Translations under genes and position numbers: made by a program
Shown here: positions 31,703 through 60,606 of the stretch, in pieces
Layout of the letters: each line of letters starts with the position of its first letter
How positions within the stretch are numbered: the first letter of the stretch is position 1
Notes under the pieces: generated by a model
What the model was told of the DNA's origin: nothing
The model's input: the letters and a program-made list of their open reading frames with translations, nothing else
Database searches by the model: none
Assembly (NCBI GenBank): GCA_030390025.1
Contig: CM059432.1
Coordinates: forward strand, 9,734,001 to 9,798,000
Direction of reading: 5' to 3'
Origin: Squalus acanthias
Lineage: Eukaryota
DNA length: 64,000 bases

Positions 31703-31905
31703 TCTATTTATGAAGCCCAGGATACCGTATGCTTTTTTAGCCGCTTTCTCAACCTGCCCTGCCACCTTCAACGATTTGTGCAGATATACCCCCAGTTCTC
31801 TCTGTTCATGCACCCCCTTTAGGATTATACCCTTTAGTTTATATTGCCTCTCCTCGTTCTTCCTACCAAAATGTATCACTTCGCACTTTTCTGCATTAAA
31901 TTTCA

Positions 31906-32370
31906 GGTGGCAGATGGAGTATAATGTGGGGAAGTGTGAAATTATCCACTTTGTTAGGAAGAATGGAAAAGCAGAATATTTTTTAAAAGATGAGAGACTA
32001 GTAAATGTTGGTATTCAGAGGGATTTGGGGATCCTTGTACACAAATCACAAAATTAACATGCAGGTACAGCAAGCAATTAGGAAGGTAAATGGTATGTTA
32101 GCCTTTGTTGCAAGGAGATTGGAGTATAAGAGTAAAGAAGTCTTGCTGCAATTATATAGGGCTTTGGTGAGACCACACCTGGAGTATTGTGTACAGTTTT
32201 GGTCTCCTTACACAAGGGAGGATATACTTGCCTTAGAGGGAGTGCAACGAAGGTTCACCAGACTGATTCCTGAGGTGAGGGGATTGTCCTATGAGGAGAG
32301 ATTTAGTAGAATGGGCCTGTACTCTCTGAAGTCTAGAAGAATGAGAGGTGATCTCATTGAAACGTATAAC
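31906..32370 (+). mobile_element. CR1 RT fragment
   Basis: WQMEYNVGKCEIIHF; ORF 32005-32403 LYRALVRPHLEYCVQFWSP. Confidence 0.85.
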
Positions 32371-32504
32371 ATCCTACGCCCTGTCTTAACCTCATACAGC
32401 TGAACACAACGTTAAACGGCATGAAGGACCCCCCCACCAGTGCTACATAAAGGAATCATGAATTACTTACAGGTTAGTTGCTGGATTAATTATTCTGGCA
32501 GCTG

Positions 32505-33299
32505 GTGCAGTTCTGGAGCATGCACGATGCCGAGAACTCGGTGAATCGCTCATTTAGTGAGTTGTCCACACCGCAGGTAAAGGCTAGGACAGACAGTGAA
32601 TGGGTGACCAAGAAGCAGGGCAATATCAGGAAGGTAGTGCAGGAGTCCCCTGTGGTCATCTCCCTCCAAAACAGGTATGCCGCTTTGGATACTGTTGGGG
32701 GAGATGGCCTACCAGGGGAAGGCACTAGCAGCCAGGTTCATGGCACCATGGCTGGCTCTGCTGCACAGCAGGGCGGGAAAAAGAGTGGTAGGGCTATAGT
32801 GATAGGGGACTCAATTGTAAGGGGAATAGACAGGAGTTTCTGTGGCCGCAACCGAGATTCCAGGATGGTATGTTGCCTCCCTGGTGCAAGGGTCAAGGAT
32901 GTCTCGGAGCGGCTGCAGAACATTCTGAAGAGGGAGGGTGAACAGCCAGCTGTCGTGGTGCATGTAGGTACCAACGATATAGGTAAAAAGCGGGAAGAGG
33001 TCCTACAAGCAGAATTTAGGGAGCTAGGAGCTAAATTAAAAAGTAGGACCTCTAAGGTAGTAATCTCTGGATTGCTACCAGGGCCACGTGCTAATCAGAA
33101 TAGAGAGAACAGGATAGTGAGATTGAATACGTGGCTTGAGCAGTGGTGCAGGAGGGAGGGATTCAAATTCCTGAGGCATTGGAACCAGTTCTGGGGGAAG
33201 TGGGACCTGTACAAAAGGGACGGTCTGCACTTGGGCAGGACTGGAACCGATGTCCTCGGGGTAATATTTGCTAAAGCAGTTCGGGAGGATTTAAACTAA
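32505..33299 (+). CDS. CR1 ORF1 (N-truncated), SGNH/GDSL esterase domain
   Basis: IVIGDSIVRG, LPGARV, HVGTND and RDGLHL motifs intact; N-terminal zinc finger missing; first in-frame ATG at 32520. Confidence 0.85.
   Translation: MQFWSMHDAENSVNRSFSELSTPQVKARTDSEWVTKKQGNIRKVVQESPVVISLQNRYAALDTVGGDGLPGEGTSSQVHGTMAGSAAQQGGKKSGRAIVIGDSIVRGIDRSFCGRNRDSRMVCCLPGARVKDVSERLQNILKREGEQPAVVVHVGTNDIGKKREEVLQAEFRELGAKLKSRTSKVVISGLLPGPRANQNRENRIVRLNTWLEQWCRREGFKFLRHWNQFWGKWDLYKRDGLHLGRTGTDVLGVIFAKAVREDLN
33290..33299 (+). promoter_or_regulatory. Candidate -1 programmed ribosomal frameshift site T_TTA_AAC before the ORF1 stop
   Basis: ORF1 codons GAT TTA AAC TAA; the -1 frame TTT AAA CTA ATA TGG.. is open into ORF2. 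Confidence 0.55.
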
Positions 33300-33346
33300 T
33301 ATGGCAGGGGAATGGGAACCTATGTAGCGAAACAGGGGGAAGTAAT

Positions 33347-36283
33347 ATGCAGTCAGAAACAAATGTTAGAAGGGTGAGAAACAATAGGGGAAGGCCGAGT
33401 AAACAAAGGCAAGAAACACAAAGGGCCATACGAAATCATAAGTCTAAAAGAACAAAGGATGTTAATGAAACAAGCCTAAAGGCTCTGTGTCTTAATGCAA
33501 GGAGTATCCGTAATAAGGTGGATGAATTGACTGTGCAAATAGATGTTAACGGATACGATGTGATTGGGATTACAGAGACGTGGCTCCAGAACAATCAAGG
33601 CTGGGAACTGAACATCCAGGGGTATTCAACATTCAGAAAGGATAGAATAAAAGGAAAAGGGGGTGGGGTAGCATTGCTGGTTAAAGAGGAGATTAATGCA
33701 ATAGCTAGGAAGGACATCAGCTTGGAGGATGTGGAATCAATATGGGTTGAGCTGCAGAACACCAAAGGGCAGAAAACGTTAGTGGGAGTTGTGTACAGAC
33801 CTCCAAACAGCAGTAGTGAGGTGGGGGAGGGTATGAAACAGGAAATCAGAGGTGCGTGCAAAAAAGGCACGGCAGTTATCATGGGTGACTTTAATATGCA
33901 TATAGATTGGGCTACTCAAACTGGAAGCAATACGGTGGAGGAGGATTTCCTGGAGTGTTTAAGGGATGGTTTCCTAAATCAATATGTTGAGGAACCAACT
34001 CGAGGGGAGGCCATCCTGGACTGGGTGTTGTGTAATGAGGAGGGACTAATCAGCAATCTTGTGGTACGAGGCCCCCTGGGGAAGAGTGACCATAGTATGG
34101 TGGAGTTCTACATTAGGATGGAGAAGGAAACAGTTAAGTCAGAGACCATGGTCCAGAACTTAAATAAGGGCAACTTTGAGGGTATGAGGCGTGAATTGGC
34201 GAGGTTAAATTGGCAAGCGATATTTAAGGGGCTATCAGTGGAAGGGCAATGGCAGACATTTAGAGATTGCATGGATGAACTACAACAATTGTACATCCCG
34301 GTCTGGCGTAAAAATAAAAAAGGGAAGGTGGCTCAACCATGGCTAACAAGGGAAATCAGGGATAGTATTAAAACCAAGGAAGTTGCATACAAATTGGCCA
34401 AAAGTAGCAGCAAACCCGGGGACTGGGAGAACTTCAAAACTCAGCAGAGGAGGACGAAGGGTTTGATTAGGGCAGGGAAAATAAAATATGAAAGGAAGCT
34501 TGCAGAGAACATTAAAATGGACTGCAAAAGCTTCTATAAATATATAAAAAGAAAGAGGTTAGTAAAAACAAACGTAGGTCCCCTGCAGTCGGAAACAGGG
34601 CAAGTCGTAATGGGGAACAAGGAAATGGCAGATCAATTGAACAAGTACTTTGGTTCGGTGTTTACTGTGGAGGACACACACAACCTGCCGGAAATAAAAG
34701 GGGTCAGAGGATCTGGTAAGAGGGAGGAGCTGAGGGAAATCCTTATTAGTCGGGAAAAGGTATTGGGGAAATTGATGGGACTGAAGGCTGAAAAATCCCC
34801 GGGGCCTGATGGTCTGCATCCCAGAGTACTTAAGGAGGTGGCCTTGGAAATAGTGGATGCATTGACGATCATTTTCCAACATTCCTTAGACTCTGGATCA
34901 GTTCCGATGGAGTGGAGGGTGGCCAATGTAACCCCTCTTTTTAAAAAAGGAGGGAGGGAGAAAGCAGGGAATTATAGACTGGTCAGCCTGACATCGGTCG
35001 TGGGTAAAATGATGGAAGCAATTATTAAAGATGTCATAACAGACCATTTGGAAAGTGGCGACATGATAGGTCCAAGTCAGCATGGATTTGTGAAAGGGAA
35101 ATCATGCTTGACAAATCTTCTGGAATTTTTTGAGGATGTTTCCAATAGGGTGGACAGGGGGGAACCAGTAGATGTGGTGTATTTGGACTTTCAGAAGGCC
35201 TTCGACAAGGTCCCACACAAGAGATTGGTGAGCAAAGTTAAAGCACATGGGATTGGGGGTAATGTGTTGACGTGGATTGAGAACTGGTTGGCACACAGGA
35301 AACAAAGAGTAGGAGTAAATGGGTACTTTTCAGAATGGCAGGCAGTGACCAGCGGGGTACCGCAGGGTTCGGTGCTGGGACCCCAGCTGTTTACATTATA
35401 TATTAATGATTTGGACGAAGGGATTAAATGTAATATCTCCAAATTTGCGGATGACACTAAATTGGGAGGCAGTGTGAACAATGAGGAGGATGCTAGGAGG
35501 CTACAGAGTGACTTGGACAGGTTGGGTGAATGGGCAAATGTATGGCAGATGAAGTACAATGTGGATAAATGTGAGGTTATCCACTTTGGTGGTAAAAATA
35601 GAGAGGCGGACTATTACCTGAATGGTGGCAGATTAGGGAAAGGGGAGGTGCAACGAGACCTGGGCGTCATGGTACATCAGTCACTGAAGGTGGGAATGCA
35701 AGTGCAGCAGGCAGTCAAGAAAGCAAATGGCATGATGGCCTTCATAGCAAGGGGATTTGAGTACAGGAGTAGGGAGGTGATGCTACAGTTGTACAGGGCC
35801 TTGGTGAGGCCACACCTGGAGTATTGTGCGCAGTTTTGGTCTCCTAACTTAAGGAAGGACATTCTTGCTATTGAGGGAGTGCAGCGAAGGTTCACTAGAT
35901 TGATTCCTGGGATGGCCGGACTGACATATCAAGAAAGATTGGGTCAACTGAACTTGTATCCTCTGGAGTTCAGAAGAATGAGGGGGGATCTTATAGAGAC
36001 ATTTAAAATCCTGACTGGTTTAGACAAATTAGATGCGGGCAGAATGTTCCCAATGTTAGGGAAAACTAGAACCAGGGGTCACAGTCTAAGGATTAAGGGG
36101 AAGCCATTTAGGACTGAGCTGAGGAGGAACTTCTTCACCCAGAGAGTGGTGAATCTATGGAATTCTCTTCCACAGAAGGTTGTTGAGGCCAGTTCGCTAA
36201 ATATATTCAAAAGGGAGTTAGATATAACACTCACAACTAGGGGGATCAAGGGGTATGGCGAGAAAGCAGGAATGGGGTACTGA
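33347..36283 (+). CDS. CR1 ORF2: apurinic-like endonuclease + reverse transcriptase (978 aa, uninterrupted)
   Basis: [69 protein letters not shown] mutated to NYRL. Confidence 0.95.
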   Translation: MQSETNVRRVRNNRGRPSKQRQETQRAIRNHKSKRTKDVNETSLKALCLNARSIRNKVDELTVQIDVNGYDVIGITETWLQNNQGWELNIQGYSTFRKDRIKGKGGGVALLVKEEINAIARKDISLEDVESIWVELQNTKGQKTLVGVVYRPPNSSSEVGEGMKQEIRGACKKGTAVIMGDFNMHIDWATQTGSNTVEEDFLECLRDGFLNQYVEEPTRGEAILDWVLCNEEGLISNLVVRGPLGKSDHSMVEFYIRMEKETVKSETMVQNLNKGNFEGMRRELARLNWQAIFKGLSVEGQWQTFRDCMDELQQLYIPVWRKNKKGKVAQPWLTREIRDSIKTKEVAYKLAKSSSKPGDWENFKTQQRRTKGLIRAGKIKYERKLAENIKMDCKSFYKYIKRKRLVKTNVGPLQSETGQVVMGNKEMADQLNKYFGSVFTVEDTHNLPEIKGVRGSGKREELREILISREKVLGKLMGLKAEKSPGPDGLHPRVLKEVALEIVDALTIIFQHSLDSGSVPMEWRVANVTPLFKKGGREKAGNYRLVSLTSVVGKMMEAIIKDVITDHLESGDMIGPSQHGFVKGKSCLTNLLEFFEDVSNRVDRGEPVDVVYLDFQKAFDKVPHKRLVSKVKAHGIGGNVLTWIENWLAHRKQRVGVNGYFSEWQAVTSGVPQGSVLGPQLFTLYINDLDEGIKCNISKFADDTKLGGSVNNEEDARRLQSDLDRLGEWANVWQMKYNVDKCEVIHFGGKNREADYYLNGGRLGKGEVQRDLGVMVHQSLKVGMQVQQAVKKANGMMAFIARGFEYRSREVMLQLYRALVRPHLEYCAQFWSPNLRKDILAIEGVQRRFTRLIPGMAGLTYQERLGQLNLYPLEFRRMRGDLIETFKILTGLDKLDAGRMFPMLGKTRTRGHSLRIKGKPFRTELRRNFFTQRVVNLWNSLPQKVVEASSLNIFKRELDITLTTRGIKGYGEKAGMGY

Positions 36284-36493
36284 GGTAGCATGTTCAGCCA
36301 TGAACGCATTGAATGGCGGTGCAGGCTCGAAGGACCGAATGGTCTACTCCTGTACCTATTTTCTATGTTTCTATGTTTCTACGCATTTTTGGCGCTTTCC
36401 TACACTTGTCTAAAGTTTGAATAGTCTACAGGGAGTGGTCTGGCTGGTGCTGAAGTAATGTTTTGGTGGTTTAAGAGCTTGTGCTGAAACAAG

Positions 36494-60240: not shown

Positions 60241-60606
60241 TCAATCCTGAACTCATTCCGCATGCCTCCCGAGGAGTTGCACAGTCTCGCCATTCCTTAA
60301 AGAGACAAGTCACATCTGTCAAATAACTGAGCCCAAAGCATCTCGTTCTACACTTTCATACTCAATTCTCGAAAATACCTTCTGTTGCTACTTTTTATTA
60401 GTAATATTAAAGGTTATGGTCAGTGAGAAGGAGATTGGGATTAGATGAGGAGAAAAACAATGGCAAATAGGGATACGCAAAACGACCTGTAACAATCTCG
60501 TGAACATTCTGTGATTGTGATTATCGGCTCCTGCTACACTGTGAGCACTGACAAATACATACTCAGGCTAGTAAATCCACAGATTTATTTCTTTTATTAT
60601 GTAGCA

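Follow-up and report, generated by a model that had tools for sequence, protein, structure and literature searches.

How does an element that carries two reading frames on a single RNA have its second protein translated? For long interspersed nuclear elements (LINEs) this is an old open question, and in the available part of a 2013 paper the mechanism is called 'not clear' (PMC3708506). A copy of the LINE CR1 in Squalus acanthias raises the question in a particularly concrete form. It lies on contig CM059432.1 (assembly GCA_030390025.1, positions 9,734,001 to 9,798,000 of the forward strand), in a stretch of 64,000 nucleotides (nt) that we call the window and number from its first letter. The first open reading frame (ORF1) of this copy encodes an esterase and closes with a canonical slippery heptamer and a stop codon; the second (ORF2), which encodes an APE domain and a reverse transcriptase (RT), is in the -1 frame relative to the first. 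From a comparison of this junction with those of other CR1 lineages, we propose that it is probably a -1 programmed ribosomal frameshift signal that would yield a fusion of the two proteins, ORF1p-ORF2p.

ORF1 of the window copy ends on the forward strand, like all features of the copy described below, with GAG GAT TTA AAC TAA (33285-33299). The codons TTA (33291-33293) and AAC (33294-33296), together with the third base of the codon before them, form T_TTA_AAC (33290..33296), an X_XXY_YYZ slippery site in the register of ORF1, and the stop codon TAA (33297..33299) adjoins it on its 3' side. ORF1 starts in phase 0 and ORF2 in phase 2 (modulo 3), which places ORF2 in the -1 frame. Translation in that frame from 33290 (FKLIWQGNGNLCSETGGSNM) is stop-free and arrives at the ORF2 ATG after 57 nt, and the frame stays open for 997 codons starting at the heptamer. 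The segment 33290..33346, 5' of the ATG, is a linker translated only in the -1 frame (FKLIWQGNGNLCSETGGSN). The ATG itself stands 47 nt past the ORF1 stop, with an A at -3. G runs follow shortly after the heptamer (GG 33303-04, GGGG 33307-10, GGG 33314-16, GGGGG 33335-39), and a basic linker ahead of the APE domain is present in the ORF2 translation. An earlier note on this DNA, made from the sequence alone, had claimed the in-register slippery site, the stop-free -1 frame with 57 nt to the ATG, G runs from about 6 nt past the heptamer and the basic linker, and each of these claims is borne out by the sequence. TTTAAACTAA occurs once in the window, and at least one match was found in 18 of 100 shuffles, so that a lone site could be due to chance; it is conservation that lifts the site above chance.

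The family of the window copy is very young and very abundant: all 147 scored ORF1 matches, of 85,537 first-look candidates, are 99-100% identical. Such a family is uninformative on selection, and diverged lineages were therefore used instead. Junction DNA was obtained from them by three routes, (i) own-genome searches with diverged proteins, (ii) short regions selected solely from the coordinates of protein matches (high-scoring segment pairs, HSPs) and (iii) public metagenome contigs scanned with the ORF1 alignment; the junction loci in the tallies were found by protein match (tblastn) and not by motif. The lineages covered comprise about 20 clusters from the shark genome itself, together with several bird-like CR1 contigs and a single unplaced one. 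In every diverged lineage with junction DNA a block is kept that consists of NNT TTA AAC, the stop, 4-7 nt and a G run. Heptamer and stop are in register at 32 of 32 loci of the window family and at 25 of 30 loci of a second family, with about 45% identity in ORF1. The five loci that deviate in this second family are decayed copies, two of which lost the stop but keep TTTAAAC, two have point changes in the heptamer and one has a deletion. TTTAAAC followed by a stop is also present in 23 of the 23 short regions selected by HSP coordinates. Six metagenome contigs contain the block in register, as GCT TTA AAC TAG (L038, L039, L040, L043), GCT TTA AAC TGA (L051) or TCG TTA AAC TAG (L033); three others are frame-broken yet retain GCTTTAAAC, and in three more the ORF1 match runs off the contig end. 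The GCT TTA AAC contigs are closest to bird proteins among 18 named vertebrate proteins (48-72% identity). Scans for more foreign junction DNA returned only bacterial GDSL hydrolases from genome contigs (22-28% identity) and nothing from viral contigs, and a search for longer fused proteins gave six chimeric gene models that hold no junction information.

The same signature is visible in proteins. Searches with ORF1 recovered relatives from many sharks, rays and a chimaera at 41-75% identity, and nearly all full-length relatives end in Leu-Asn after a variable residue. Such C-termini occur in sharks, rays, chimaera-like sequences, the coelacanth, a mormyrid, frogs and turtles, while one lizard sequence ends in Leu-Lys. 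The earlier note had suggested that amniote CR1 ORF1s end TTTAAACTA, and this fits the five bird-like contigs (GCT TTA AAC followed by TAG or TGA) as well as the LN-ending ORF1 proteins of turtles, frogs and the coelacanth. One relative, P0006, is recorded as a Pseudomonas aeruginosa SGNH/GDSL hydrolase; over its full length it shares 60% identity with the shark CR1 ORF1, it ends ...EGLN and comes from a 4.2-kb contig, and it looks like vertebrate DNA inside a bacterial assembly. The teleost-type relatives are different: the ORF1 proteins P0082-P0087 do not end in Leu-Asn, and the heptamer is missing in three teleost-type metagenome contigs (L036, L037, L042). In L037 (1817-2720), which holds a ZfL2-1-like esterase LINE, ORF1 ends ...TTLRH TGA, followed by a C, and ORF2 goes on past the TGA without a change of frame, with at least 300 open codons that reach into the APE domain. 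To judge from this one contig, readthrough of the stop codon or a restart may take the place of the -1 shift in this sister lineage.

Is it the protein or the RNA that is being conserved? In a codon alignment of 14 lineage representatives, the last two ORF1 codons are TTA in 14 and AAC in 14. Eight other invariant residue columns of the same alignment each draw on 2-4 synonymous codons, TTA is absent (0 of 27 cases) from two further invariant Leu columns, and in the element as a whole TTA accounts for 15 of 110 Leu codons (14%) and AAC for 27 of 65 Asn codons (42%). The heptamer also takes in the third base of the codon before Leu-Asn. This codon encodes D, H, G, A, T or S and ends in T in 13 of the 14 representatives. 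Among 74 LN-ending ORF1 proteins from databases, the residue at this position has 13 different identities, and only one protein has a residue that lacks an NNT codon (E, K, Q, M or W), against a background of 17%; the same five residues occupy positions -4 and -5 in 46 and 36 of the 74 proteins, respectively. In the ungapped junction alignment (13 representatives), a stop, whether TAA, TAG or TGA, adjoins the heptamer in 13 of 13, and conservation is confined to a block comprising heptamer, stop and the G residues at +11 to +14 (12-13 of 13), dropping on either side. The heptamer is thus conserved at synonymous positions among diverged relatives, as is typical of a frameshift signal, and since synonymous positions elsewhere in the alignment are scrambled, the alignment indicates that the constraint acts on nucleotides, not on the protein.

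The reading frame beyond the heptamer tells a similar story. The 150 nt past the stop were clustered at 80% similarity, which gave 21 clusters, and in 12 of these there is a copy without stops between the heptamer and the APE motif. Wherever the junction is intact, the APE match is in the -1 frame. The spacer between heptamer and APE motif varies from 37 to 70 codons while the phase is kept, so that, through many indels, its length has changed by whole codons only. Counted from the stop to the first Met (or to the APE motif) over 385 codons in 12 representatives, for which open copies were picked where a cluster had several, the -1 frame has 0 stops and the other two frames have 28 and 43. The first Met of the -1 frame, on the other hand, is at codon 3, 16, 18, 19, 22, 28, 47 or 58, or absent, and at least five lineages have no ATG ahead of the APE domain. 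The '316-aa' family has AGG at the position of the window's ATG; four of its four copies contain no Met for 174-182 codons, and a longer piece has none before codon 255. These four copies are 98.9-99.7% alike, so that their source element must have been recently active without an ORF2 AUG, unless it was mobilised in trans. The pattern predicted in the earlier note, in which TTTAAAC, the stop and an open -1 frame would be conserved and the ORF2 ATG would not, was therefore found across diverged lineages.

The region 3' of the stop is less conventional. A run of at least four G begins 7-10 nt past the heptamer in 12 of the 13 representatives (33307..33310 in the window, 10 nt past the heptamer); it is the sole conserved downstream feature and lies roughly where a stimulator would begin. 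Among the copies of a second ORF1 family of this genome (L062-L091), the post-stop run varies from 4 to 15 G. In dead copies the -1 frame is broken by changes in run length not divisible by three, and the tract is thus mutationally costly and yet kept. The 60-100 nt past the stop are purine-rich, with 4-12% C in most shark lineages. We folded 60 and 100 nt past the stop of the 13 representatives, with 100 shuffles each, using a tool that cannot predict pseudoknots. The 60-nt folds of all shark lineages contain no significant stem-loop (minimum free energy (MFE) z-scores of -0.7 to +1.9), a z-score of -2.2 being reached in one bird-like contig only, and no structure was seen 5-9 nt downstream of the heptamer, where a 3' stimulatory RNA structure usually lies. 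The remark in the earlier note that no strong pseudoknot is apparent agrees with these folds, within the limits of such a tool. Its suggestion of a G-quadruplex stimulator did not hold up: the canonical four-run pattern is present in 2 of 20 clusters, both decayed and with expanded G runs, and is absent from the window, so we reject the G-quadruplex as a conserved feature. ViennaRNA places a G-quadruplex in the MFE structure of 9 of the 20 clusters, the window family not being one of them. A 3' stimulatory structure is usual at frameshift sites and not obligatory, and protein-dependent frameshift stimulators exist.

We thus propose the following scheme. Most ribosomes would terminate at the UAA and yield ORF1p, the esterase, on its own. 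A minority, with UUA and AAC in the P and A sites, would slip back by one base (U_UUA_AAC to UUU_AAA), read CUA AUA UGG and continue into ORF2. The product would be an ORF1p-linker-APE-RT fusion joined as ...EDLN-LIWQG..., analogous to Gag-Pol, and the junction peptide expected in it is EDLN-LIWQGNGNLCSETGGSNMQSETNVR. The signal would consist of the heptamer, the adjoining stop and the G tract 7-10 nt downstream, and the G tract, the adjacent stop or both might do the work of a pseudoknot in raising or tuning slippage. The sequence, its register, the -1 relation of the frames, the conservation of nucleotides and the lack of conservation of the ORF2 ATG are observed; that ribosomes slip at this site, how frequently they do so and what part the G tract plays, we infer. 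Frameshifting is the simplest reading because it accounts at once for the textbook heptamer and its precise placement in the ORF1 frame, the constrained last base of the codon before Leu-Asn, the -1 relation that survives whole-codon indels and the dispensable ATG.

Several observations weigh against this scheme. The lineages share ancestry, so that the counts are not independent events. Nine of the 21 clusters are without an open copy, two because they are cut by the locus end and seven with stops or indels typical of dead copies, and the zero-stop count is partly circular given how representatives were picked. There is no significant stem-loop in the shark lineages, and a lone G tract is no established stimulator. 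L033 has G_TTA_AAC, for which re-pairing in the P site is weaker. The stop that always adjoins the heptamer could indicate an event linked to termination and not a slip during elongation. Finally, a missing AUG is not decisive, since in human L1 ORF2 reportedly starts without one.

The last two points lead to the alternative that survives best, although we consider it unlikely. Here ORF2p would be a separate protein, started near the stop in the ORF2 frame by reinitiation that is coupled to termination and independent of an AUG, as described for L1 and SART1. After completing ORF1, a part of the ribosome would remain on the RNA, and the block of TTTAAAC, stop and G tract would be a retention or restart signal. 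Such a mechanism explains why the stop always adjoins the conserved block and why the ATG is dispensable, and a restart at the stop would likewise need a frame that is open from there. ORF2 initiation in bicistronic LINEs is unconventional and dependent on ORF1 according to the available part of a 2010 review (PMC2881922), and the mechanism is left unclear in that of the 2013 paper (PMC3708506). In one shark lineage, L124 (G000:C2:173796170-173796900), the stop overlaps an ATG of the ORF2 frame as TAATG right after the heptamer, which is the arrangement reported for SART1 in the same 2013 text. The TAATG of L124 is nonetheless the only case in which stop and restart codons overlap or lie within a few nt of each other, as they do in SART1 and caliciviruses; in the window they are 47 nt apart, and where an ATG is present in the various lineages it is 3 to 58 codons away and at no fixed short distance. 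The G tract is downstream of the stop, whereas the tethering motif of the calicivirus type is upstream. Reinitiation also fails to explain why the conserved letters match a canonical tandem-slippage heptamer precisely in the ORF1 frame, including the last base of the codon ahead of TTA, and why ORF2 is always -1 and never +1. It is these features that favour frameshifting, and the two processes could coexist in families that bear an ATG.

A second alternative, which we regard as quite improbable, is that the slippery pattern is coincidental. The block would then serve another role, such as a need for Leu-Asn at the C-terminus or RNA packaging or recognition, and leaky scanning would bring ribosomes to the AUG of ORF2 itself. 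The purine-rich region could indeed be a binding site, and the window family does have an ATG, 47 nt past the stop and with its A at -3. The codon-level invariance of TTA and AAC, however, excludes a purely protein-level constraint. Leaky scanning is also hard to reconcile with the at least five lineages in which no ATG precedes the APE domain, including a young one (99% alike), and with the scarcity of stops 5' of the ATG, where the -1 frame has none against the 28 and 43 of the other frames (in representatives chosen open). A union of the two frames in the RNA itself, through splicing at the AG that precedes the G run in most lineages or through polymerase slippage at a run whose length does differ among copies, deserves hardly any credit, since the G run is past the ORF1 stop and slippage there cannot bypass it, there is no polypyrimidine tract and the conserved heptamer is left unexplained. 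Logan contigs of four runs, whose RNA status is a guess and from which rare variants are dropped, contain no joints, and among the differences listed none is an indel within 33241-33511, but we give this no weight.

If the junction is a frameshift signal, the mechanism as such is known, but the class of element is new to it and the context is unusual and apparently structure-free. The gag-pol junctions of retroviruses and other long terminal repeat (LTR) elements and the ORF1a/1b junctions of nidoviruses likewise have a tandem-slippage heptamer at the end of the upstream ORF and a polymerase ORF that is -1 and open from the site, and there too a minor fusion is expected beside an abundant upstream protein. 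U_UUA_AAC is the coronavirus heptamer, and G_UUA_AAC, the variant found in L033, is that of equine arteritis virus. CR1 differs from these systems in being a non-LTR LINE with an esterase ORF1, no Gag and no protease to process the fusion; no pseudoknot or stem-loop was found in it, the stop adjoins the heptamer and a single G tract stands at 7-10 nt. The placement of the stop has its closest match in plant luteoviruses and dianthoviruses, whose frameshift sites have a zero-frame stop directly after the slippery heptamer. Those signals need nearby or long-range RNA structure, none of which was detected in CR1, and both the heptamer and the host kingdom differ.

Frameshifting is standard in retroviruses and common in LTR elements; among mobile elements of animals, pol is in the -1 frame in 28 of 51 LTR elements according to the accessible text of the Atkins 2016 review (PMC5009743). 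The same text reports gag frameshifting in HeT-A, a telomeric element of Drosophila that is, like CR1, a non-LTR retrotransposon. The HeT-A shift, unlike the one proposed for CR1, lies inside gag, and HeT-A is an insect element without RT and without an esterase ORF1. Human L1, whose ORF2 is described in the available part of the 2010 review as using unconventional initiation (PMC2881922), and silkworm SART1 also have bicistronic LINE RNAs, with ORF2 expression that depends on ORF1 translation and scarce ORF2p, as far as these two texts go (PMC2881922, PMC3708506). They make a separate ORF2p and have no slippery heptamer, whereas the in-register heptamer and fixed -1 relation of CR1 point to a fusion. 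The zebrafish L2 element ZfL2-1 has a related esterase ORF1p, and teleost-type relatives lack the Leu-Asn end and the heptamer, unlike CR1. Frameshifting is proposed neither for CR1 nor for another vertebrate LINE in the literature that we consulted, including PMC13343379, PMC4120745, PMC4316615, PMC3905857 and PMC4255032; the original chicken and turtle CR1 papers and the 2003 esterase paper were outside this scope, and an early remark there is possible.

The element itself is a 5'-truncated CR1 copy (32512..36381). Its blastn matches to the full copies L003, L004 and L011 begin at 32512-32513, and likeness to other copies in the window ceases at 36376-36381. The ORF list gives an ORF1 remnant of 259 amino acids (aa; 32520..33299); full copies carry an ORF1 of 315 aa, as read from L003, so that the ATG at 32520 is internal. 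Residues 94-242 (about 32799-33245) match the SGNH/GDSL esterase domain (PF13472, E 1.8e-13), and among solved structures the nearest is 4c1b, the zebrafish ZfL2-1 ORF1p esterase (E 1.2e-32). ORF2 is intact (978 aa, 33347..36283), with an APE domain at about 33539-34093 (Exo_endo_phos, PF03372, E 6.3e-14, residues 65-249) and an RT domain at about 34952-35611 (RVT_1, PF00078, E 7.7e-34, residues 536-755). By direct reading, the 3' untranslated region (36284..36381) ends in a short TTCTATGT-like terminal repeat without poly-A, an ending that we take to be a hallmark of CR1. The combination of an esterase in ORF1 with APE and RT in ORF2 is that of a canonical esterase-type CR1 LINE. In the available part of a 2026 survey, cartilaginous-fish L2 elements are without ORF1, and canonical CR1s either have an esterase ORF1 themselves or group with relatives that have one (PMC13343379). 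Based on domain content, relatives and this statement, 'CR1' seems a fair label.

The surroundings of the copy are rich in related sequence. Besides the intact ORF2, tblastn finds 46 pieces of CR1 ORF2 (22-96% identity) crowded between 1305 and 62739, of many ages and on both strands; a CR1 3' fragment (31703-32403) ends just upstream of the studied copy, and a diverged copy near 60600 is truncated within the linker and offers no second junction. The segment 32400-33900 is near-identical (56-85% of sampled words) in runs of six differently coded organisms (A, B, D-G), and on this measure the young CR1 family is common to several related species or samples.

The junction also affects annotation. 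The public gene models concerned (P0019, P0113 and P0127, which are ray or other models, and P0135 from duck) include some that cross it as ...G-FKL..., in the -1 frame, and others in which fragments of the CR1 ORF1 are fused with host genes ('hydroxyacid oxidase 2', 'PDZ and LIM domain protein 5'). Such models look like artefacts caused by the junction. Annotation pipelines currently mis-model it, and several public gene models read through.

What would frameshifting mean for CR1? The element is the dominant retrotransposon of most vertebrates in the available text of the survey (PMC13343379), and a conserved canonical slip site would give it a defined and testable mechanism for ORF2 expression. 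A wider proposition can be made, for which we see the case as evenly balanced: all canonical esterase-type CR1s of jawed vertebrates, from sharks to birds, may make their APE-RT protein only or mainly as a U_UUA_AAC -1 fusion, with a signal that would have been kept for more than 400 million years and a stimulator that would consist of the adjacent stop and a short G tract, with no RNA fold. Frameshifting at this junction, if true, would tie the expression of LINEs to the Gag-Pol strategy of retroviruses and account for the way in which a scarce ORF2p may be coupled in cis to ORF1p assemblies. It would also provide a natural frameshift signal that apparently works without a pseudoknot. On the wider proposition, CR1 would be the first vertebrate LINE with a Gag-Pol-style expression strategy, and its junction would harbour a new kind of frameshift stimulator.

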